The notes beneath the pieces are model-generated. The model did not search any database, was not told the DNA's origin, and was given only the letters and a program-made list of their open reading frames with translations. From positions 64,001 through 128,000 of the forward strand of contig CAWKNZ010000001.1 in NCBI GenBank assembly GCA_963851265.1: a DNA stretch of 64,000 bases, written 5' to 3'. Position numbers and translations under genes: made by a program. Within the stretch, counting starts at the first letter, position 1; every line of letters begins with the position of its first letter. Below, one piece after another: positions 12,611-22,650 of the stretch. This DNA comes from an uncultured Gemmatimonadales bacterium (lineage in GTDB: Bacteria; Gemmatimonadota; Gemmatimonadetes; Gemmatimonadales; Gemmatimonadaceae).

Positions 12611-13234
12611 ATGGCCGTCCCCGGATACTCCGACCGCGTCAACCACGCGCTCGCCTTCGCCGCGAAGCACCACGACCGCGAGGTGCGCAAGGGCACGCGG
12701 GCGCCCTACTTCACCGCGCCGGCCAACGTGGCCGTGATCCTCACGCGCTACGATTGCGACGAGGACACCGTCGTGGCCGGGGTGCTGCGCCACGCGGTCG
12801 AGGACATGCTGCGCGACGGGGCGAGCGAGGACGGCGTGCACGAGCGCCTGGCCGACAAGTTCGGCCCCGACGCGGTGGAGGCGGTGCTGCACGTGGCCCG
12901 CCGCCGCTTCGACGACGACGGCGTCGAGCTGTCGCACGAGGAGCAGAAGCACGACACGCTCGACCGCCTCGCCAGCGCGTCGGACGCGGCGCGGTGGGCC
13001 TTCGCCGCACACGAGGTGCACGACGCGGCCACCCTCCTCGCCGACCTGCGGCGCACGAGCTTTCCCGACTCGGTATGGCAGCGCGTCGCCGAAGGGCCGG
13101 TCGGGCGAGTCCGCTGGTACCACGACGCCGCGGCACGCCTCGCCGCCGTCGGATTCCACGCCGGCATCATCGACGAGTTGCGCGGCGCCGCCGCAGCCCT
13201 CGACGGCAGCGCGCCCGCGTCGATGGCCCGATAG
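12611..13234 (+). CDS. Mesh1/SpoT-like HD-domain protein with degenerate metal ligands
   Basis: ALAFAAKHH..RKG...PY pattern; LRHAVED in place of LHDVVED; TACAAT 8 nt before the ATG. Confidence 0.75.
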   Translation: MAVPGYSDRVNHALAFAAKHHDREVRKGTRAPYFTAPANVAVILTRYDCDEDTVVAGVLRHAVEDMLRDGASEDGVHERLADKFGPDAVEAVLHVARRRFDDDGVELSHEEQKHDTLDRLASASDAARWAFAAHEVHDAATLLADLRRTSFPDSVWQRVAEGPVGRVRWYHDAAARLAAVGFHAGIIDELRGAAAALDGSAPASMAR

Positions 13235-13260
13235 CCGGGTCGACGCACGAAACACGAGAG

Positions 13261-13288
13261 GCGGGGGGCCCGGTGACGGGCCCCCCGT
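13261..13288 (+). terminator. GC-rich hairpin after the HD gene
   Basis: cggggggcccg-GTGA-cgggccccccg, 11-bp stem with GNRA loop; no clear U-tract. Confidence 0.6.
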
Positions 13289-13317
13289 CGTGCGTCCGGG
13301 CTGGCAATCTCGACCAT

Positions 13318-13345
13318 TCAAGTCTGACTGCGGTCGTGCCGATAA
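13318..13345 (+). promoter_or_regulatory. sigma28 (FliA/WhiG/SigD)-like promoter, copy 1
   Basis: TCAAGT-N14-GCCGATAA; same boxes and spacing recur at 19257. Confidence 0.7.
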
Positions 13346-13415
13346 CGGAGCCCGAGGCGCTCGCCACCTCCGGCTCCGCACCTCGCTCCACTCCGCTTTC
13401 ACAGCAAAGACGCAT

Positions 13416-13532
13416 ATGTCGCCACGTCGCAACAGCAGCCCCCGGCTGCCGCGCGCGCGCCACATCGCCCGCGTCGGCCCGGCGCTCGGCCCCGCCGCCC
13501 GCGCCGGCACCCCCGCACCCCGGATCGGCTGA
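13416..13532 (+). CDS. 38-aa leader ORF, copy 1 (MSPRRNSSPRLPRARHIARVGPALGPAARAGTPAPRIG)
   Basis: Stop overlaps the next start (TGATG); first 20 codons nearly identical to the copy at 19355; same length. Confidence 0.55.
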   Translation: MSPRRNSSPRLPRARHIARVGPALGPAARAGTPAPRIG

Positions 13533-14221
13533 TGCCCCTCGCCTTAACCTCGTTCCGCCGCGGCCTGCGCGCCGCCACGCCCGCGATCGCCCTCGGCACC
13601 GCAGCCCTCACCGCGGCGCTCGCGGCCTGCTCCGACAGCAACAGCCCGACTGGCCCGGTCGTCGCGAGCGCCCGCACGCCGCAGCCCGTTGGGCCCGCGT
13701 ATGCGACCGCGAGCACGGCGGCCTCCCAGGTGCTCAGCCAGACCCAGAGCGGCGACACCACGGTCACGACCCTGCAGCTCGGCACGAGCACCGGCCAGCT
13801 GGTCGCGCAGATCGGGAACGCGAGCAAGATCGTCTTCCCGTACGCCGCCGCTTCGGTGTGTGACCCGGCGAGCTCGAGCTATGGCATCGGCACGTGGAAC
13901 AGCCCGTGTACCGCCGCCACGACCCCGATCCAGATCACGGCTAAGACGTGGGTCGACCCGGAGACCGGCAAGACCCGGAGCAGCTTCTCGCCGGCGCTCC
14001 GCTTCGTGCCCGGGCTCAAGAGCAGCGGTCACGCTCTACCTCCACGACCCGAACCAGCGTCGCGAGGCGACGCGATCTGGTACTGTCCCGACGGCGCGCT
14101 CACGTTGCGTGGACGAGGCGAGCGCGGACCCGAGCGTGGCCACCCAGTACGGCAGCAGTAGCCAGCGGGTCTACGCGCGGCCATCAAGCACTTCTCCGGC
14201 TACACCGTCGTCGTCAACTGA
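13532..14221 (+). pseudogene. HFS-motif lipoprotein paralog 1, 3' part broken by about 4 frameshifts (pseudogene or assembly error)
   Basis: Lipobox LAAC. Segments homologous to the 20089 paralog alternate between two frames: RFVPGLKS / AVTLYLHDP / IWYCPDG / CVDEASADPSV / IKHFSGYTVVVN-stop at 14221. Confidence 0.75.
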
Positions 14222-14225
14222 CGGC

Positions 14226-14293
14226 GCGCGGACGGACGCGATCGGGGGCAGTCGGGCAGATGCCCGACTGCCCCCGATCGCGTCCGTCCGCGC
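14226..14293. terminator. Perfect inverted repeat with 33-bp arms and a 2-nt spacer
   Basis: 14226-14258 is the exact reverse complement of 14261-14293. Confidence 0.8.
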
Positions 14294-14419
14294 CGCACGA
14301 AGCCCGTCTCGCCCCGCGGTGCCGGGCGATGTCACGCCCGGCCGACATACCCGTCCTATCGACGGCCACCGAGTGGCCTCTCGATTCGCACGCCCGTTCC
14401 CGCCGTCCCTGGTCCGCGC

Positions 14420-17400
14420 ATGTCCGCGCTCGCGCATCCCGCGCCCCGCCCCGCACACCTCCGCCTCGTGCCGGCTCACGCCGACGCGCTGCAGACGCGC
14501 GTCGCCGAACTGGTAGCGAGGGGGCAGGAGGCCGAGCGGCAGGGGCATCGGGCCGCCGCCCGCGCGAGCTTCGAACAGGCGCTGCACGCGCTCGACGACG
14601 CGGCGACGGCGCGCGAGCACGCGTCGGCCATCGTGCGCATGATCGCGCGCACCTGCCAGATGGATTCCGAGCCGGACGCCGCGCTCGACTGCCTCGAACT
14701 CGCGCTGGCGATCGCCGAAGCCTGGGCCGACGGAACGGGCATCGGCCACGCCATCAACGGGCAGGCGATCGTGAACTGGCAGACGGGGCGCCTCGATGAG
14801 GCGGAGCGCCTGTACCTGCTCGCGCGCACGCGCGCCCTGCAGAGCGGCGACGCGAAGCTCGCGGCGATGACCGCACAGAACCTCGGCGTCCTCGCGAACG
14901 CGCGCGGCGACTACGAGGTCGCCCAGCGCCACTACGAGCGGAGCCTCGCCGAGTACCGCGTGCTCGGCCTCACGCACGACGTGGCCGTCGCGCTCAACAA
15001 CCTGGGACGGCTGCACACCGCGCGCGGGCAGTGGAAGGCGGCGGAGCAGGTGCTCGTCGAGGCCGCCGAGATCTGCGACCTCGCGGGCGACGTTGCCACA
15101 CGCATCGCGGTCGACGCGAACGTGGCGGAGATGTGGGTCGCGCAGGGCGCGTTCGACCGCGCGCAGGCCGCGGTCACCCGCGCGATCGAAGGTGCGACGA
15201 ACGTCGGGGACACGTCGGTCCTGGGGCAGGCGGACAAACTGCTCGGGATCATCGCGCGCGAGGCGGGCGAGTTCGTGACCGCCGAACGGTATTTCGTACA
15301 TGCCGACGAGGTGGCGAGGGCGCGCCAGGACGTGCTGCTCCAGGCGGAGATCGCCCGCGAGCGCGGGGACCTGGCGCAGCGCGTCGGGAAGAACCGCGAC
15401 GTGCTGCAGCACCTCAATCGCTCGCACCGGCTGTTCACCGAGTTGCGCGCGGGCGCCGACGTGGCCGACATCGACCGGCGGCTCGGCGGGCTCGAGGCGC
15501 AGTTCCTCGAGGTCGCGCGCCGGTGGGGCGAGTCGATCGAGTCGAAGGACTGCTACACCCAGGGGCACTGCCAGCGCGTGGCCGACCTCGCGTGCCTCCT
15601 CGCCGAGCACGCGGGGGCCGACCACGGCTTCGACGCGCAGGCCATGTTCTGGTTCCGGATCGGGGCGCTGCTGCACGACGTCGGCAAGCTGATGATTCCG
15701 CCCGAGGTGCTCAACAAGCCGGGCAAGCTGACCGACGAAGAGTGGATCCTGATGCGGAGCCACACGACCGCGGGGGTGGCGATCCTCGCCGACATCGAAT
15801 TCCCCTGGGACGTCCGCCCGATCATCGAGTCGCACCACGAGCGGTGGGACGGGCGCGGATACCCGAACCGCCTCGTCGGCGAGGCCATCCCGCTCACCGC
15901 GCGCATTCTGTGCGTGGCCGACGTCTACGACGCGCTCACCTCGGTCCGGTCGTACAAGCGCGCCCTGACGCACGACGAGGCCGTGGGCATCATGCGCCGC
16001 GACGTCGGGACCATGTTCGACCCGCAGGTGTTTGCCTGGTTCGAGGAGATCGCCGCCGAGTGGGCGGGGCGCGTCGCCGCACCCGACGCGTCGCCGCCTG
16101 CCGCCGCCGCACCGGCGGTCGCGCCGCCCGCAGCGCCGGCGTCCGAAACCGGGACGTCGTCGGTGAGCGAGTCGGAAGCCCCCGCGCGCGCCGACGTGCC
16201 CGACGACCTCACCGGGCTGCCGCTCCGGCGAGCGTTCCGCGATACCGCCGAACGCATCCTCGCCGCGCGGCGGACCACCGGCCGGCCGGTGTCGCTGCTC
16301 GTCATCGACGTCGACCACTTCAAGCTCGTCAACGACACCTTCGGGCACCTGCAGGGCGACGACATCCTGCGGGCCGTGGCCGACCAGATCCGAGCCAGCA
16401 CCCGCCCGGTCGACTACCCGGCACGGTACGCGGGCGACGAGTTCGTGGTGCTCCTGCCCGGGACACGGCTCGACGAGGCACGGGCCGTGGCCGAGCGGAT
16501 CCGGTCGGCGGTCGCGCGTGCGACCTGTCCGCGGCGCGACGGACCGGGCGTGGTCTCGGTGACGCTGTCGATCGGTGTCGCGACCCTCCCGCAGCACGGC
16601 GAGACCCTCGAAGCCCTGTTCGCGGCGTCCGATGCGGCGCTCTACGACGCCAAGCGCGCCGGCCGGAATGCCGTGAGCGCGGGGTCGGCCGACGCCGACC
16701 GGCGCCGTGACCTGATGCTTGAGTGCTTCGTGGGGCGTGTGGCCGAGCGTGCCCACCTGCGCGAGCGCCTCGACGCGGCCGCCCAGGGCCGCCCGCACGT
16801 GGTCGCCGTGTGCGGCGAGGCGGGCGTCGGCAAGTCGACGCTGGTCAAGCAGCTCGCACCCGACGTCGGCATTCGCTCCGGCTCGCTCATCACCGGGCGG
16901 TGCGTCGACACCGACCTGCGCGCGCCGTACGCGCCCTGGGTGGACGCGGTGCTCGGCGTGCTCCGTGCCGGCATCGCCCCCCGGCATGCGTGGCGCGAGC
17001 TGACGCGCCTCGTCCCCGAGCTGGTCGGCGGTGCGGACGCGTCCCGTCGCGAGACGGGTTCGCCGCACGCGCTGCTCGAGGAACTCGACCTCTTCTTCCG
17101 CCTCGCGTCGGAGATCCGACCCATAGTCGTCGTGCTCGACGACATGCAGTGGGCGGACACTGCCAGCTGGAGCGCGCTCGAGTACCTCGTCGGCCGGTTC
17201 GACACGCAGCGGCTGCTGATCTGCCTCACCATCCGCGCCGAGGACCTCGACGATGCGGGCGACGCACGCCGCCGCCGGCTCTCGCGCGCCGACGTCTATA
17301 CCGAGATCTCGCTCCCCCGGCTCACCGAGGCGGACCTCGCGCTGTGGCTGCGGACGGCCCTCGGAGGCCAGGAGCCCGAGCCTGCGCTCCTCGCCTACCT

Positions 17401-19240
17401 CGTCGCGCAGAGCGAGGGGAACTCGTTCTTCGCGCTGCAGACGCTCCGCGCGCTCGCCGACGACGAGCGCCTGACGTTCGTCGACGGGCGCTGGACGTTC
17501 GATGCCGCGGCCGACGGCTCCATGCCGCGCGCGATCCACGATCTGCTCGCGCGCCGGGTCGCTCGGCTCGACCGACCCTGCCGCGACGCCCTCGCGGTCG
17601 CGGCCGTCCTCGGACGCGAGTTCGACCCGGAGACCCTGGTCGCGGCGTGCGAGGGGAACGAGGCCGGGGTACTCGACGCCCTCGATGCCGGGATGGAGGC
17701 CGCGGTGCTGGTCCCGTCCGAGATCTCGCCGACGGCCGTCGCGTTCGCGCACACGCTCCTCACGCGCGTGCTGCAGGACGGGATCAACCCGCTGCGCCTG
17801 CGTCGCATTCACGAGCGCGTGGGGCGTGCGCTGGAGTCGCGCGGCGGGCACGCGCCGGCCCAGGTCGCGCTGCACTTCGACCGCGCGGGGTGTGCCGAGG
17901 ACGCCTACCGGACGGCCATGAACGCCGGCGCGCGCGCGGCCGACCTGTACGCGTACGAGACGGCGGCGGACCTCTTCGAGATGGCACTCCGGCACGCGCG
18001 CACGCTGCGCGAGACGGCCGACGTCGAGTGGCGCACCGCGCAGATCGCCGAGATCCGCGGCCGCTACGCCGACGCGGAACGTGCGTGCGACGCCGTCCTC
18101 ACCACGTTCGCCAGCGGGGCGGCGGAGATCGGGATCCTGCGTGCGGCGCGCCGCATGCGCGAGCGACTCCGCCTTCAGCGAGGGGCGTCGGCGAGCCAGG
18201 TCGCCGAGACGTGTACCGAACTGCTCGCCGAGGCGCGCGCGGCCGGTGCCGACGAGGAGATCGTCCCGCTCCTGATCATGATCTCGACGGCGCACGGGCG
18301 GCGCGGCGACGGGTCCGAAGCGGCGCGAATCGCCCGCGACGCGAACGACGAGGCCGAGCGGCTCCGCAGCCTCCCGCTCCAGGCGGACGCCGCGATGCGG
18401 CTCGGGTCGACGGTCCTCGAGATCAGTCCCGCCGACGCCGTCCCGCACTACCGGCGGGCGCTCGACATCTTCACGCGCCTCGACAACCGGTACGGGCAGC
18501 TGCGCGCACAGATCAACATCGGCGTGGCCTGCGACCGGGCGGGGAACAGCCCGGGGGCGGAGGTCTCGTACGCGACCGCGCTGTCGATCGGGCGCGACAT
18601 CCGCGCGACGGACCTCACCGGCATCGCGTCGCTCAACCTCGGCGTGCTCCTGCTCAAGACTGGCCGGTTCGACGGCGCACGGGAGCGCTTCGAGGAGGCG
18701 CGACAGCTCTTCGTGACGATCGCGAACGAGCCGTACCGACTGGCCGCGCTGTACAACCTCGCGAACGTCGCCCGCGAGTGCGGCGACGCGGCCGGCGCGC
18801 TCGAGCTGTACGGCGCGGCCATCTCGCTCGCCGAGTCGTTGGGTCACGCCGACGTGCACGCCGGCGCCCTCGCCGGCGCCGGATTGGCCGAACTCGACCT
18901 CGGCGCGATGCGCGGCGCGCGCGTGCACCACGACGCCGTGCGCGCGCTCGTCGACGGGCGGACGGACGCGTGGTTCGAGGGGCGCGAGCTGTGCGAGGCG
19001 CTCGACGTCCGGCTCGCCGCGCAGGATGGGTCGGAGTCCGAGGCGGTCGCCCGACTGCTCGACGCGCTCGACCGCGCGGAGCTGCACAACCAGTACGCCG
19101 CCATCTGGCTCGGGGCCGAGTGCGCGGCCGTGCTCCGGAGCGCGGGACGCGTGGCCGAAGTCACGCTGCACCGGTTCCTCGTGCACGCGCGCGCCCTCGG
19201 CTACGACCCGCTCGTCACGCGACTGCGCGCGGACGGTTAG
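14420..19240 (+). CDS. 1606-aa TPR / HD-GYP / GGDEF / STAND-type AAA ATPase / TPR signalling protein
   Basis: TPR repeats (ALNNLG); HD-GYP YTQGHCQRV, LHDVGK, HHERWDGRGYP, VADVYDAL; IDVDHFKLVNDTFGH..RPVD..RYAGDEF; Walker A GEAGVGKST, Walker B VVLDDMQWAD; C-terminal TPRs. Confidence 0.93.
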   Translation: MSALAHPAPRPAHLRLVPAHADALQTRVAELVARGQEAERQGHRAAARASFEQALHALDDAATAREHASAIVRMIARTCQMDSEPDAALDCLELALAIAEAWADGTGIGHAINGQAIVNWQTGRLDEAERLYLLARTRALQSGDAKLAAMTAQNLGVLANARGDYEVAQRHYERSLAEYRVLGLTHDVAVALNNLGRLHTARGQWKAAEQVLVEAAEICDLAGDVATRIAVDANVAEMWVAQGAFDRAQAAVTRAIEGATNVGDTSVLGQADKLLGIIAREAGEFVTAERYFVHADEVARARQDVLLQAEIARERGDLAQRVGKNRDVLQHLNRSHRLFTELRAGADVADIDRRLGGLEAQFLEVARRWGESIESKDCYTQGHCQRVADLACLLAEHAGADHGFDAQAMFWFRIGALLHDVGKLMIPPEVLNKPGKLTDEEWILMRSHTTAGVAILADIEFPWDVRPIIESHHERWDGRGYPNRLVGEAIPLTARILCVADVYDALTSVRSYKRALTHDEAVGIMRRDVGTMFDPQVFAWFEEIAAEWAGRVAAPDASPPAAAAPAVAPPAAPASETGTSSVSESEAPARADVPDDLTGLPLRRAFRDTAERILAARRTTGRPVSLLVIDVDHFKLVNDTFGHLQGDDILRAVADQIRASTRPVDYPARYAGDEFVVLLPGTRLDEARAVAERIRSAVARATCPRRDGPGVVSVTLSIGVATLPQHGETLEALFAASDAALYDAKRAGRNAVSAGSADADRRRDLMLECFVGRVAERAHLRERLDAAAQGRPHVVAVCGEAGVGKSTLVKQLAPDVGIRSGSLITGRCVDTDLRAPYAPWVDAVLGVLRAGIAPRHAWRELTRLVPELVGGADASRRETGSPHALLEELDLFFRLASEIRPIVVVLDDMQWADTASWSALEYLVGRFDTQRLLICLTIRAEDLDDAGDARRRRLSRADVYTEISLPRLTEADLALWLRTALGGQEPEPALLAYLVAQSEGNSFFALQTLRALADDERLTFVDGRWTFDAAADGSMPRAIHDLLARRVARLDRPCRDALAVAAVLGREFDPETLVAACEGNEAGVLDALDAGMEAAVLVPSEISPTAVAFAHTLLTRVLQDGINPLRLRRIHERVGRALESRGGHAPAQVALHFDRAGCAEDAYRTAMNAGARAADLYAYETAADLFEMALRHARTLRETADVEWRTAQIAEIRGRYADAERACDAVLTTFASGAAEIGILRAARRMRERLRLQRGASASQVAETCTELLAEARAAGADEEIVPLLIMISTAHGRRGDGSEAARIARDANDEAERLRSLPLQADAAMRLGSTVLEISPADAVPHYRRALDIFTRLDNRYGQLRAQINIGVACDRAGNSPGAEVSYATALSIGRDIRATDLTGIASLNLGVLLLKTGRFDGARERFEEARQLFVTIANEPYRLAALYNLANVARECGDAAGALELYGAAISLAESLGHADVHAGALAGAGLAELDLGAMRGARVHHDAVRALVDGRTDAWFEGRELCEALDVRLAAQDGSESEAVARLLDALDRAELHNQYAAIWLGAECAAVLRSAGRVAEVTLHRFLVHARALGYDPLVTRLRADG

Positions 19241-19256
19241 GCGGTCAGGCGCGCGC

Positions 19257-19283
19257 TCAAGTCGCGCCGGGCTGTTGCCGATA
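19257..19283 (+). promoter_or_regulatory. sigma28-like promoter, copy 2
   Basis: TCAAGT-N14-GCCGATA, same spacing as copy 1. Confidence 0.7.
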
Positions 19284-19354
19284 CTCCGGCCCGAGGGCGT
19301 CGCCACCTCCGGCGCCGCGCCTCGACCCACCCCGCTTCCACAGCAACGACGCAT

Positions 19355-19471
19355 ATGTCGCCACGCCGCAACAGCAGCCCCCGGCTGCCGCGCCTGCGCC
19401 ACATCGCCCGCGTCCCCTCGGCGGCAGGCCCCGCCGGTGGCGCGGTCTTCACGTTCACCTTGAGCATCTGA
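19355..19471 (+). CDS. 38-aa leader ORF, copy 2 (MSPRRNSSPRLPRLRHIARVPSAAGPAGGAVFTFTLSI)
   Basis: Translated by hand; ATG lies 78 nt after the start of GCCGATA, as in copy 1; stop is 3 nt before the next ATG. Confidence 0.55.
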   Translation: MSPRRNSSPRLPRLRHIARVPSAAGPAGGAVFTFTLSI

Positions 19472-19474
19472 CTA

Positions 19475-20089
19475 ATGCGCCACCTCACATCATTCCGCCG
19501 CGCCGTGCACGTCGCGACGCCCGCGCTCGCCCTCGGCACGGCCGTCGTCACGGCCGCCCTCGCCGCCTGCTCCGACACCCCGACCGGGCCGGCCACTCCG
19601 AACGCGGCCGAAGCCGCGTTCCATCCGGGCCTGCACGCGAACGTGTCCTCGAGTCCGATGGCGGTCACGCCCGTCAAGCGGACGCAGCGTGTCGCGCAGG
19701 ACTCGGTCGTCACCTTCACCGTGCAGCCCGGCGGGACGACGTTCCGCGGCCCGGACGCCTCGATCAGCTTCCCGGCCGGGTTCGTGACCAAGCCGACGCA
19801 GTTCACGGCCACCCGCAAGGGTGGCAGCGCCCTCGCCTACGACTTCCAGCCCTCGGGCACCTTCACGAAGCCGGTGACGGTCACGTTCACGCTCGCAGGG
19901 GCGGCGATCCCGGCCGGCGCGAATCTCTCGGCGCTGCAGGGCGCCTACGTGCAGGATTGGAGTCAGGTCAGCGACTCCACGGCTGCGGTCAGCGAACTCG
20001 AGCCCACCACGGTCGACCCGAAGTCGGGCACGGTGACGATGACCCTCTCGCACTTCTCCGGCTACCTCGTCTCGTGGGGGCGGCGCTAA
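19475..20089 (+). CDS. ZU5-like lipoprotein ending in HFSGY (paralog 2)
   Basis: Lipobox LAAC; ISFPAGFV...DFQPSGTFTKPVTVTF...LSHFSGYLVSWGRR resembles the ZU5 pattern. Confidence 0.75.
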   Translation: MRHLTSFRRAVHVATPALALGTAVVTAALAACSDTPTGPATPNAAEAAFHPGLHANVSSSPMAVTPVKRTQRVAQDSVVTFTVQPGGTTFRGPDASISFPAGFVTKPTQFTATRKGGSALAYDFQPSGTFTKPVTVTFTLAGAAIPAGANLSALQGAYVQDWSQVSDSTAAVSELEPTTVDPKSGTVTMTLSHFSGYLVSWGRR

Positions 20090-20829
20090 TGCGTAGCACG
20101 TTCGCCCCCCTGCGTTACGCCGTGCGCGCGGCCACGCCCGCGCTCGCCCTCGGCGTCGCCACGCTCACCGCGGTGCTGGCCGCGTGCTCCGATAGCTCCA
20201 CCGGCCCGACGCAGCCCAGCGCGCCGTCGGCGAGTCGTGCGGTCGCTCCGCCGCCCCCCGCGGCGATGCTCGCCGCGCTCTCGCAGGGCGTCCAGGGCGC
20301 GACCACCGGCCCGTCGTTCTCCCGCGTGGCCGAGCAGTCGGCGGTGGCGCACGGCGATACCGCCATCATCACGCTGACCTTCGACCCCACGGTCGCGCAC
20401 ACCGTCGCGTTCAACACGCGCACCAGCCAGAACGGCGTCGCCCTCGCCGCCAACTCGGTGTGCAACCCGGCGACGTCGGGCTACGGGCCACTCCTGTGGG
20501 ACGCGCCGTGCCAGGTGGCGACGAAGCCCTTCACCCTCACCGTCCGGGGCTGGATGGGAACCGATGGCCAGCCGAAGGTCGCGTTCTCGCCGGACATCCG
20601 GTTCGCGCCGTCGGCCACCAACTGGCTCTGGCTGGCGGGACCCGGCGCCGGGTCCGCGAAGGGCGTGATCGCGTGGTGCCCGACGGCCGGCGGCCTGTGC
20701 GTCAACGAGTCCGCGCTCGACGGAAGCGTGATGACCGGCACCGACAAGGGGATCTACTACCGGCGGATCAAGCACTTCTCCGGCTACACCGTGGTGGTGA
20801 ACCGGACCGGGGCGGTCGACGGTCTCTGA
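20089..20829 (+). CDS. HFS-motif lipoprotein paralog 3
   Basis: TAATG overlap with the previous gene; lipobox LAAC; two Cys pairs shared with paralog 1; ends IKHFSGYTVVVNRTGAVDGL. Confidence 0.8.
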   Translation: MRSTFAPLRYAVRAATPALALGVATLTAVLAACSDSSTGPTQPSAPSASRAVAPPPPAAMLAALSQGVQGATTGPSFSRVAEQSAVAHGDTAIITLTFDPTVAHTVAFNTRTSQNGVALAANSVCNPATSGYGPLLWDAPCQVATKPFTLTVRGWMGTDGQPKVAFSPDIRFAPSATNWLWLAGPGAGSAKGVIAWCPTAGGLCVNESALDGSVMTGTDKGIYYRRIKHFSGYTVVVNRTGAVDGL

Positions 20830-20869
20830 CGGGGCGCTCGACCGCTGGGCCTCGATCGTCAGGCACCGA

Positions 20870-20932
20870 GCACGCGGAAACACACGGGGCCGCCGGGCGA
20901 CATGCCCGGCGGCCCCGTGTGTTTCCGCGTGC
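20870..20932. terminator. Perfect inverted repeat with 29-bp arms between convergent genes
   Basis: 20870-20898 pairs with 20904-20932; 5-nt loop. Confidence 0.8.
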
Positions 20933-20937
20933 GAGCC

Positions 20938-22650
20938 TCAGCGTGTGGCCACCGTGCCGTGCGCGGCCTGCCCGGAATCGCCCGCGATGCCCCAGTCGGC
21001 GATTCCGGCCCACCAGGCGTCGGCGCGCATCGCGACCGGTCGCAGGTCCCGTCGCACGGCGGCGATGCTGCGCGGCTCGTATAGCCACACCGCGGGCGCG
21101 TCGTCGATGATCGTGGCGTAGGCGCGCCGAACGAGTGCCGTGCGGCGCTCCGGCTGGAACTCGGCGGAGGCGCTGTCGAGGAGCGCGTCGAAGGTCGCGT
21201 TCGTCCAGCGCCCGGAGTTGGCGCCGCCGTCCGCGCCGCGCGGCGTGCCCCAGTCGTGGCGCAGCGTGGTCGGATTCGGGTCGGTTCGCCACGAATTGAG
21301 CGCGACGTCGAAGTCGCCCGCGTGCAGGCGCTCGATGAAGCTTCCCGGGTCGACCGCGTCGATGTTCACGCGCACGCCGATCTGGGCCAGCTGGGCCTGC
21401 AGCAGCACCGCGAGACGCATGCGCGGCACGCTACTCGTGGGAACGAGGAGTGCGAGGTCGAGCGGCCGGCCGGCGCGCGCGCGCCGGCCCGACGTCGGGT
21501 CGAGCCGCCAGCCCAGGGCGTCGAAGCCGCGCGCCGCGGCGGCCGGATCGTAGGCGATCTGGCGGAGCGTCGTATCCGCCGTGGGTTGCGCGCGCGTGAA
21601 CGGTCCGAGGGCGACGCGGGCGCTGGGGCCGAGCGCGTTGCGCACCACCGCCGCGCGGTCGATCGCCTGGGTGAGCGCGACGCGTGCGGCGCGGTCGGCG
21701 AACGGCGCACCGATGCCGGCCCCGCGCGCGCCGGTGCGCGCCCGCTCGTTGAAGACGAGGAAGGCGTAATCCAGGCTGCCGTATTCGACGGTGCGCAGCC
21801 GGGGCGAGCGCGCCGCGCGGTCGATGGCCTCGCCGCGGACGGCTTCGAGCACGTCCGCCTGCCCCGACAGGACGCTGGCGAGCGCCGCGTTGGGGTCGCC
21901 GGTGACCGTCCAGACGACGCGGTCGAATCGCGGACGGCCGCGGTAGTTGGTCGTATCGGCGTTGAGGGTCAGCTGACGGTGGTGGTCCCAGGCGGCGAAC
22001 CGGTAGCGTCCGGAGCCGATCGGATGCGCGGCGAACGCGGACGTCGCGACGGCCGAACGCGGTACGCTGCCGAGCAGGTGCTCGGGCATCACGGCCAGGT
22101 TGTAAGCGACCTGGAAGAACTGCTCGGGGGAGCGGCGGTGCCACCACACGACGGCGGTGAGCGAGTCGCGCACGGCGACCGAGTCCATGCCCGCGAAATC
22201 GGAGGCGTGGACCGAAGCGCCCGTCGTGTCGGTGAACAGGGCGAACGAGAAGCGTACGTCGCGCGCGCGTACCGGCCGGCCGTCGTGCCAGCGTGCGCGC
22301 GGGTCCAGCTCGAAGGCGATCGAGAGCGAATCGGGGGCCCACGTCCAGCGCCGTGCGAGCTGCGGGCGGTAGCCGCCGTCGCCGTTGGTGGGGACCGAGT
22401 CGTCGGCGGTCGCGAGATGGTCGAAGACGAGGTCGACCGCCTGCTTGCCCTGGGTCGTGGCGACGAGCGGCGGGATCAGCTGGTCGGCGTCGGCCGGCGT
22501 CGCGATCACGAGGGCCTGGGCTCCGCGTCCCGACGGGGGGGTGCCGCGTCCGCAGGCCGCGACGGTGAGGGCCGCGAGCGCGGCGAGCGGGAGCGCGTGC
22601 GGGCTGGGGGCGTGCGGGCGGGGGGCGTGCGGGCGCGGCGACGGCGGCAT
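20938..22650 (-). CDS. Peptide ABC transporter substrate-binding lipoprotein (family 5)
   Basis: VAAC lipobox; PQLARRW, ARWHDGRPVRARDVRFS and IGSGRYRF motifs. Confidence 0.88.
   Translation of the reverse strand: MPPSPRPHAPRPHAPSPHALPLAALAALTVAACGRGTPPSGRGAQALVIATPADADQLIPPLVATTQGKQAVDLVFDHLATADDSVPTNGDGGYRPQLARRWTWAPDSLSIAFELDPRARWHDGRPVRARDVRFSFALFTDTTGASVHASDFAGMDSVAVRDSLTAVVWWHRRSPEQFFQVAYNLAVMPEHLLGSVPRSAVATSAFAAHPIGSGRYRFAAWDHHRQLTLNADTTNYRGRPRFDRVVWTVTGDPNAALASVLSGQADVLEAVRGEAIDRAARSPRLRTVEYGSLDYAFLVFNERARTGARGAGIGAPFADRAARVALTQAIDRAAVVRNALGPSARVALGPFTRAQPTADTTLRQIAYDPAAAARGFDALGWRLDPTSGRRARAGRPLDLALLVPTSSVPRMRLAVLLQAQLAQIGVRVNIDAVDPGSFIERLHAGDFDVALNSWRTDPNPTTLRHDWGTPRGADGGANSGRWTNATFDALLDSASAEFQPERRTALVRRAYATIIDDAPAVWLYEPRSIAAVRRDLRPVAMRADAWWAGIADWGIAGDSGQAAHGTVATR

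Follow-up and report, generated by a model that had tools for sequence, protein, structure and literature searches.

Several kinds of short leader cistron are known in bacteria, among them the RNA-controlled coupling leaders of tap-repA (plasmid R1), mok-hok and uof-fur and the ribosome-arrest leader peptides SecM, MifM, ErmCL and Apc/Apd, of which the SecM-type sensors also carry export signals. For four upstream open reading frames (uORFs) of Sinorhizobium meliloti, coupling has been shown by start mutations (PMC13285730). Lipoprotein signal peptides can themselves have a second life, as in the enterococcal peptides cCF10 and iCF10, whose active part is described as the hydrophobic C-terminal 7–8 residues and in which the peptide is selected (PMC7117660). 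Here we describe a repeated element in a stretch of 64,000 nucleotides (nt), referred to as the window, from an uncultured Gemmatimonadales bacterium (contig CAWKNZ010000001.1 of assembly GCA_963851265.1, positions 64,001 to 128,000, forward strand). The element is a cassette of 215 nt that stands twice in the window, each time ahead of a lipoprotein gene, and holds a promoter-like motif, a 5′ hairpin and a short leader open reading frame (ORF). With confidence only somewhat better than even, we consider it most likely that the cassette heads an operon under sigma-28 control and that its leader ORF, which derives from a lipoprotein signal peptide now in decay, would act by translational coupling. 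Coupled uORFs are already a known kind of element; of the signal-peptide origin and the multi-copy head we found no description in the literature searched, which included few subscription papers.

The two window copies (13318–13532 and 19257–19471) can be aligned gaplessly with an offset of 5939 nt and are identical at 165 of 215 nt, an identity that drops to 20 of 68 in the 68 nt just upstream. The match within the genome has a BLAST E value of 6e-47, which indicates duplication and not chance. Each leader ORF in the window is 117 nt long and encodes 38 amino acids; the first 60 nt are identical at 57 positions, the differences being one synonymous change in codon 4 and an Ala/Leu exchange at codon 14, and the remainder is identical at 33 of 57. 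The distance from the start of GCCGATA to the ATG is 78 nt in both copies, and the junction with the lipoprotein gene reads TGATG in copy 1 and TGA-CTA-ATG in copy 2. A first-pass annotation of the window had described this colinear pair, its two 117-nt ORFs with their near-identical fronts, the 78-nt spacing and the junctions, all of which we recover. It had also proposed a search for more copies, and there are four in the genome (G000; 4.6 Mb, 73% GC), the window pair included, and eight in total: two more lie in genome G001 and one in G002, of the same genus, and the eighth is on contig L061, from a metagenome. The terms "gap-free" and "38 codons" used in that annotation hold for the window pair but not for the other copies, which have indels of 1–3 nt in the untranslated part and include ORFs of 36, 37 and 40 codons.

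The range of the cassette is narrow. A DNA search of family genomes, with two candidates scored per genome, matched 3 of 401, all in the same genus, so that the cassette is seen in three of the five genomes of one genus and on one metagenome contig; neither the 396 other family genomes nor the viral contigs gave a cassette match. A pattern scan of metagenomes in which the ATG was left free returned seven stretches, of which only L061 is a true copy and six are chance matches. None of the claims made here depends on G011, an unpublished genome. Two paralogous copies in G001 (L033:7769-7861 and L034:8138-8230) show no difference in a 93-nt stretch around the leader start though their flanks differ, and one lineage-specific codon suggests conversion with the L033 copy as donor and the L034 copy as recipient. 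It is also worth recording that the order and partner of the lipoprotein genes behind the common head differ between species at syntenic sites (L032, L034, window 13532 and 20089, L035, L061), a reshuffling consistent with recombination via the common signal-peptide DNA.

The origin of the leader ORF can be recognised in the lipoprotein family that it precedes. Among 170 family proteins gathered by two homologue searches, 11 have intact signals that carry both residue blocks constant in the leader ORF, and each leader ORF shares 17–21 gapless identities of 36–40 with its best intact signal, compared with a median of 5–6 over the 170 proteins. Against the intact signal of protein P0024, ORF 1 and ORF 2 have 20 and 17 gapless identities, respectively, of 38; as single comparisons, BLASTP aligns ORF 1 with P0046 at 17/31 (E 3e-7) and, for ORF 2, gives 13/20 (E 6e-6), and a leader profile matches P0154 (96%, E 1.8e-9). 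The likeness extends to the DNA, in that intact lipoprotein genes of the same genus align gaplessly with the leader ORF and share its A/C-rich start context, as well as its promoter and the distance between the two; four intact paralogues (L039, L134, L141 and L144) likewise have this context ahead of their start. The lipobox Cys of the 11 intact relatives lies at residue 35–42, mostly 38–39, and the ORF stops at codon 37–41. Four of the eight ORFs end in GCC TGA, one base off the Ala-Cys end of a lipobox, and it is plausible that the stop arose by a change of TGC to TGA.

The leader ORFs retain the positively charged n-region homologous to the family signals, and the two things that would mark a working export signal, a hydrophobic h-region and a lipobox Cys with a mature domain, are both absent: the best 12-residue hydropathy is -0.2 to 1.6, compared with 1.7–2.2 in six intact signals, and none of the eight copies contains a Cys. 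Judged by this homology, the Arg-rich front is the n-region and the variable back the decayed h-region of a signal peptide. In P0154, a signal of the leader type sits on a mature domain 55–57% identical to that of window lipoprotein 2, and lipoprotein 2 now has a different signal and lies behind the leader ORF; this pairing indicates that the ORF is the old signal left in place. The leader ORF is thus recognisable as a former lipoprotein signal peptide that remained after a new signal was placed before the mature domain. It belongs to no Pfam or NCBIfam family. A comparison of the 40-residue copy with proteins of 22–70 residues yielded one candidate and none that scored, and a search for the intact-type signal pattern found it in 0/2 and 0/3 genomes of two sister genera and in 14 of 400 family genomes, two of which hold known copies, the other 12 matches lying in unrelated genes.

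The features that are kept in the ORF are its start, its frame and the place of its stop. All eight copies have the ATG, although the base before it varies; the ORF has 38 codons in five copies and 36, 37 and 40 in the others; and the TGA either overlaps the next ATG (TGATG, 3/8) or precedes it by one codon's length (TGA-N3-ATG, 5/8), the untranslated part of the cassette having 1- and 2-nt indels. The first-pass annotation had raised the possibility that homologous cassettes drop the ATG or the frame, and none of the eight does; its suggestion of translational coupling fits a start that is open and a stop held at the lipoprotein start across four ORF lengths. A comparison of nonsynonymous and synonymous differences, which it had also proposed, gives no sign of protein-type selection: pN/pS for codons 2–20 is 1.42 (1.42–1.45), compared with 0.32 in the downstream signal peptides, and rises to 2.4 (0.145/0.060) with one copy per lineage. 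Instead, 8/10 fourfold columns are invariant in the leader, as against 3/15 in the downstream signals, and third positions are invariant at 15/19 codons, first or second positions at 13/19. The 14 invariant residues of 38 thus follow from invariant bases. Codon usage is near or below the 5th–15th percentile range of gene fronts (scores of 0.05 to -0.26; gene fronts, mean 0.21, s.d. 0.15), and the other frames of both strands hold no coding pattern, no sense shift or antisense frame having pN well below pS.

The same conclusion is reached when species are compared. Fourfold sites differ in 23 of 220 comparisons of the leader and in 35 of 101 for the matching codons in five intact orthologues, in pairs that are not independent, with fourfold divergence of 27–51% across species in whole orthologous lipoproteins. 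Seven cross-species leader pairs have 0–2 differences in 12–16 fourfold sites where background rates per codon family predict 4.2–5.6 (p 0.001–0.15), and in intact signals the fourfold differences match expectation. Rates differ among leader sites, with approximately 59% invariable and a log-likelihood gain of 7.8. Gene conversion is evident in G001, with its 93 identical bases; however, three copies (W1, G1b and M1) are syntenic orthologues whose leader ORFs differ at 1 of 14–16 fourfold sites while their lineages differ at 35–36%, and conversion between paralogues therefore cannot explain the low divergence between species. Because protein-type selection is lacking and synonymous sites are nearly frozen, the constraint lies on the nucleotides. 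We regard the operon head, on these comparisons, as a real, selected element.

The 5′ end of the cassette, which the first-pass annotation overlooked, reads TCAAGT, 14 bases and GCCGATA, and has the form of a sigma-28 promoter. The exact pattern TCAAG-N15-GCCGATA is seen five times in G000 where 0.07 are expected, and four of the five are cassettes; over all eight copies, seven have TCAAG and seven GCCGATA. Close variants precede fliC, flgM and motA of G000 (gene identities by Pfam), the boxes being 15 bases apart at motA, as in the cassettes, and 14 apart at fliC and flgM, and the genome encodes one FliA above the family cut-off. A scan for sigma-70 promoters found 0 sites. The motif also stands ahead of family lipoprotein genes that have no leader ORF, in G000, G002, G003, G004 and three genomes of other genera. 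It is reasonable to view the motif as a sigma-28 promoter that FliA would transcribe. The FliA promoter of Escherichia coli flgKL carries these boxes too, at a spacing shorter by one base, as listed in Table 2 of its source (PMC4183435). Near the expected transcription start lies the 5′ hairpin, which has folding z scores of -2.1 to -4.6 in 7/8 copies and compensatory support (4 of 11 pairs changed on both sides), and whose paired fraction or covariation score is reached by 0–1 of 500 shuffles; this hairpin is kept despite sequence variation.

Two further observations concern promoters of the family. At five loci (L122, L125, L128, L143 of genome G417 and L191 of genome G051) a second TCAAGTTT word lies approximately 25–30 nt upstream of the sigma-28 -35 box before the lipoprotein genes, itself after repeated GTGAC words, possibly as tandem promoters or an activator site. 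In other Gemmatimonadaceae, a sigma-54-like box (consensus TGGY-N7-TTGC) lies upstream of the lipoprotein family in 16 of 48 loci (L062–L112, scanned 40–300 nt before the lipobox), with one match in the reversed control; the clade of the window may therefore have exchanged sigma-54 for sigma-28.

How the ORF might act is indicated by the accessibility of the two starts. Opening the upstream start is predicted to cost 5.4–8.9 kcal/mol, below 66–95% of 170 sampled gene starts and below 96–100% of 80 internal ATGs, and the lipoprotein starts cost 8.0–17.3 kcal/mol, like coupled genes closely after a stop (median 13.4). Shine-Dalgarno-like words precede 17% of the called starts in G000 and 17% in the reversed control, no excess by a crude gene model. 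The 16S rRNA of G000 ends with an intact anti-Shine-Dalgarno sequence, though such words are unenriched. Shine-Dalgarno pairing may here count for less than an accessible start and the hand-over of ribosomes. Second lipoprotein genes in these operons, whose products have the same type of signal, are joined to the first by stop-start overlaps.

We propose that the cassette serves as a portable operon head. FliA (sigma-28) would begin a transcript that opens with the hairpin; ribosomes would load at the open A/C-rich start region inherited from the ancestral lipoprotein gene and translate the remnant signal peptide, without hydrophobic core or lipobox, as far as a TGA that lies about where the lipid-accepting Cys was. 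They would thus halt at or next to the start codon of a lipoprotein gene with a different signal of its own and a more structured start, and would be delivered to that start or unmask it, which is to say that translation would be coupled. In this mechanism the leader peptide would be a by-product, and selection would act on the start, the frame, the position of the stop and the nucleotides of codons 1–20. We infer four of these steps: that FliA transcribes the operon, that the ORF is translated, that its translation is coupled to that of the lipoprotein, and that the stop arose from a TGC codon.

Several points weigh against this account. Plain coupling needs no frozen synonymous sites, and the corresponding codons of the intact paralogues are not frozen (35/101, as above), which suggests that something more acts on codons 1–20. 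The spacing of the promoter boxes in the cassettes is one base more than at fliC and flgM. The argument from the frame rests on about three indel events, and at 73% GC stops are rare, so that an open frame alone means little. The eight copies come from four lineages and are 83–100% identical, their pairwise counts not being independent, and the background gene starts used for comparison come from a crude gene model made within the script.

The additional factor might be an RNA control site in codons 1–20, in the form of a stem folding back onto the upstream ATG or of a site bound by a small RNA or an RNA-binding protein. We hold this to be unlikely, though worth more attention than the alternatives that follow; its control would be relayed to the lipoprotein by coupling, and it would add to the explanation given above without replacing it. 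The synonymous freezing persists after correction for amino-acid make-up, with strong differences in rate among sites, and two fixed blocks surround a variable middle, the second of which (codons 16–20) can pair with the start region. In this pairing 90% of cells are paired, as against 8–54% for slid partners, the nine outer pairs are nearly intact, and 6/8 copies fold into the predicted stem. However, within the ORF only 1 of 23 pairs has changed on both sides and 29–45 of 500 shuffles match the observed values; single copies have z scores of -1.6 to +0.6, 2/8 copies fold otherwise, the column-shuffle p is 0.04, and the upstream ATG is comparatively open for a start in this genome. A scan of 13000–21000 against Rfam gave 15 matches at E up to 5, all of them below the gathering score and none on the cassettes. 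An antisense k-mer scan gave 16 13-mer and 68 12-mer intergenic matches, which is chance level, with none outstanding. The 93-nt identity of the two G001 copies with differing flanks, which such a site could account for, is equally well explained by gene conversion.

It is less probable still, and in our view improbable, that the leader peptide itself works, whether by stalling or as a free cytoplasmic copy of the n-region read by a partner such as the TPR–HD-GYP protein encoded between the two window copies. Invariant residues could be taken to favour a peptide, as could the recurrence of the TPR–HD-GYP gene as a neighbour and the presence of both residue blocks, separated by a spacer that varies, in 11 of the 170 intact family proteins, where they precede mature domains of two kinds, a conservation that exceeds what is usual for an n-region. 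Yet the invariant residues follow invariant bases, the pN/pS values given above run the wrong way whichever copies are counted, and an arrest-type tetrapeptide occurs in 1/8 copies only; enterococcal pheromones, moreover, come from the hydrophobic end of the signal (PMC7117660), and it is this end that is decayed here. The stalling peptide imagined in the first-pass annotation fares poorly for the same reasons, with pN/pS of 1.4, 8/10 fourfold sites invariant and no arrest motif or Cys common to the copies. A ribosome-arrest leader was separately considered as a candidate and rejected, protein-level conservation being absent (pN/pS 1.42) and a known arrest tetrapeptide being found in 1/8.

A neutral relic, that is, a recently broken signal carried along by operon duplication and gene conversion and having no function, is slightly less probable again and is disfavoured. 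It would sit well with the restriction of the cassette to part of one genus and a metagenome contig, with the conversion seen in G001 and with a codon usage near that of non-coding DNA. It does not explain the near identity at fourfold sites of the orthologues W1, G1b and M1 in lineages whose genes have diverged, or the survival of the ATG and stop position while codons 21–38 have widely diverged. Read-through or recoding of the TGA to give an N-terminally extended lipoprotein, which would suit the 5/8 copies in which ORF and lipoprotein share one frame with the TGA and one codon between them, is very improbable given that 3/8 copies, in two species, have the frame-breaking TGATG with the stop still beside the start, that the bases after the TGA vary and that the lipoproteins have complete signals of their own. 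The least credible of all is a precursor of a ribosomally synthesized and post-translationally modified peptide, which the constant front and variable back of near-constant length bring to mind: the pattern is that of the n-region and h-region of a signal, no copy has a Cys, protein-type selection is lacking, and the neighbours scanned (window, L031, L032 and L033; annotated as HD, HD-GYP/GGDEF, ABC-F, GMC oxidoreductase, BNR-repeat and solute-binding genes) include no modifying enzyme, peptidase or peptide exporter. Of the interpretations first offered for the window, coupling thus fits, whereas stalling and a precursor with constant leader and variable core do not.

Features of the window at and around the two cassettes
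Feature	Position	Strand	Basis or remark
GC-rich hairpin after HD-domain gene, probable terminator	13260..13289	+	inverted repeat; role inferred
Sigma-28/FliA-type promoter, copy 1 (TCAAGT, 14 nt, GCCGATAA)	13318..13345	+	motif counts, match to flagellar genes, FliA over cut-off
5′ leader hairpin near expected transcription start, copy 1	13352..13385	+	folding z, covariation
A/C-rich start region, no Shine-Dalgarno match, copy 1	13400..13415	+	nearly invariant in 8 copies
Leader ORF 1, 38 aa, TGA overlapping lipoprotein ATG	13416..13532	+	homology to intact signals
Lipoprotein 1, ZU5/GAIN-like family	13532..14221	+	sequence
Long hairpin after lipoprotein 1, probable transcript end	14236..14283	+	sequence
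TPR–HD-GYP–GGDEF–AAA–TPR protein between the copies	14420..19240	+	Pfam
Sigma-28/FliA-type promoter, copy 2	19257..19284	+	motif
5′ leader hairpin, copy 2	19291..19324	+	folding z, covariation
A/C-rich start region, copy 2	19339..19354	+	sequence
Leader ORF 2, 38 aa, TGA three bases before lipoprotein ATG, in frame	19355..19471	+	homology to intact signals
Lipoprotein 2, 204 aa, ZU5-like fold ending in HFS and one strand	19475..20089	+	model
Lipoprotein 3, 246 aa, ZU5/GAIN-like fold, TAATG overlap with lipoprotein 2	20089..20829	+	model

The surroundings of the cassettes are summarised in the table. Copy 1 follows an HD-domain gene (12611–13234), from which the hairpin between them probably separates it; this hairpin has no U-tract, and a terminator scan made no call there. 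Small indels interrupt the frame of lipoprotein 1 in the 3′ third of the gene, the called ORF ending at 14161 with the HFS motif in another frame. Relative to the orthologue in L034 the break lies at 13990–14190, and the first lipoprotein behind the G002 copy (L035) is likewise split, so that either an assembly or long-read error or true decay may be responsible. Among contigs from three DNA sequencing runs, one covers 13212–13466 with one differing letter and none of those listed spans the break. Hairpins like the one after lipoprotein 1 are found at the orthologous loci L034 and L061.

Of the 51 loci fetched with the downstream lipoprotein profile, 48 are from Gemmatimonadota, and 19 have an HD-GYP relative within 4 kb; in G000, a TPR–HD-GYP gene lies beside three of the four close paralogues. 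A GATGTCACG word at 14330–14350, ahead of the window's TPR–HD-GYP gene, is kept at L034 and L061 as well and is followed in two of the three by a GCCGACA-like box, a possible promoter or operator. The lipoprotein locus of the window has as a neighbour an OppA-like gene of solute-binding family 5 (20938–22650, minus strand), as do L181, L182 and L128, although such a neighbour is present in only 1 of the 51 family loci. Elsewhere in the window, at 1296–1486, is a tandem array of seven overlapping copies of 15–18-nt units, probably a low-complexity protein repeat.

The lipoproteins belong to no Pfam or NCBIfam family over its cut-off, and structural models were compared with known folds. The model of lipoprotein 2 (predicted local distance difference test, pLDDT, 84.7) matches ankyrin ZU5 with Z 10.1 and a root-mean-square deviation (rmsd) of 2.6 over 113 aligned residues, and that of lipoprotein 3 (pLDDT 77.5) with Z 10.3 and rmsd 2.8 over 128; lipoprotein 3 also matches the GAIN domain of BAI3 (Z 8.7, rmsd 3.5, 130 aligned), and below ankyrin ZU5 the ranked matches are to GAIN, UNC5b and FIIND. 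The motif HFS stands before the last strand in 163/170 family proteins, with a median tail of 14 residues after HF. The models thus place the downstream lipoproteins in the ZU5/GAIN fold and make them candidate autoproteolytic domains. Bacterial ZU5 domains have been described (PMC3482391), and microbial GAIN (MAIN) domains, including a Bacillus subtilis case, are reported to cleave themselves at HFS in a preprint whose main text contains no mention of Gemmatimonad or lipoprotein (bioRxiv 10.64898/2026.05.12.724683). Together, the HFS lipoproteins of ZU5/GAIN fold and the TPR–HD-GYP protein are a candidate signalling pair for peptides and cyclic diguanylate (c-di-GMP).

Where a bacterial uORF came from can seldom be traced. 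In this case there are ancestors still intact, copies in decay and downstream genes that have been shuffled, and the path by which an export signal became a leader cistron is open to reading and to testing. The frozen synonymous sites point to a function at the RNA level within a stretch of 90 nt. The cassette also supplies a candidate sigma-28 consensus for a lineage of Gemmatimonadota and places stand-alone lipoproteins of ZU5/GAIN fold, with TPR–HD-GYP genes as their usual neighbours, in what may be the flagellar regulon of the clade, although the restriction to one genus limits the general weight of the element. A bolder reading, to which we give a minor chance only a little above that of the RNA control site alone, is that the front of the lipoprotein signal carries a second regulatory message, either in the RNA, as a site recognised by a trans-acting factor, or in a peptide that the neighbouring TPR–HD-GYP phosphodiesterase reads, and is kept for this as a stand-alone translated ORF. 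Were this true, the ORF would have been kept after export passed to a new signal, and promoter and ORF would have been copied as one control unit before several self-cleaving lipoproteins. A flagellar sigma factor would then be tied to a peptide and c-di-GMP system, a connection we did not find in the literature searched, and a regulatory uORF would have been born of a signal peptide with its intermediates still present.

It is informative to set the decayed-signal operon head beside the systems it most resembles. Like the coupling leaders of tap-repA, mok-hok and uof-fur, it has a leader ORF constrained at the nucleotide level and apparently coupled to the following gene; unlike them, no antisense or trans-acting RNA is identified here, and the ORF derives from the family that it precedes. 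With the arrest leaders it has in common a short Arg/Pro-rich ORF ahead of a gene and, for the SecM type, a connection with export signals, but it is without a common arrest motif (1/8), protein-type selection or a working hydrophobic segment, and the gene that follows is not a secretion or resistance gene. Its likeness to cCF10 and iCF10 (PMC7117660) lies in a lipoprotein signal with a second life, short signal-like ORFs and a nearby protein of a peptide-binding type (TPR); the hydrophobic part is decayed here, however, and selection acts on nucleotides. At the level of transcription, the TCAAGT and GCCGATA boxes are those of E. coli FliA class 3 promoters such as flgKL, and in E. coli FliA also drives the c-di-GMP genes yhjH and ycgR; the cassettes differ in having 15 and not 14 bases between TCAAG and GCCGATA and in that their targets are lipoprotein operons (PMC4183435). 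The encoded lipoproteins match ZU5 and MAIN domains in fold and in the HFS motif at which the B. subtilis MAIN domain is reported to cut itself, whereas the domain here stands alone on a lipid anchor with a short tail and is not fused to adhesion or enzyme modules. The S. meliloti uORFs likewise are short leader ORFs with a stop on or near the main start and a peptide sequence that is apparently unimportant. Those uORFs were detected through their Shine-Dalgarno match, and the overlap is ATGA in most of them (PMC13285730); the cassette, in contrast, has no Shine-Dalgarno match and a TGATG or TGA-N3-ATG junction, and is set apart by a recognisable former signal, its use as a multi-copy operon head and its frozen synonymous sites.

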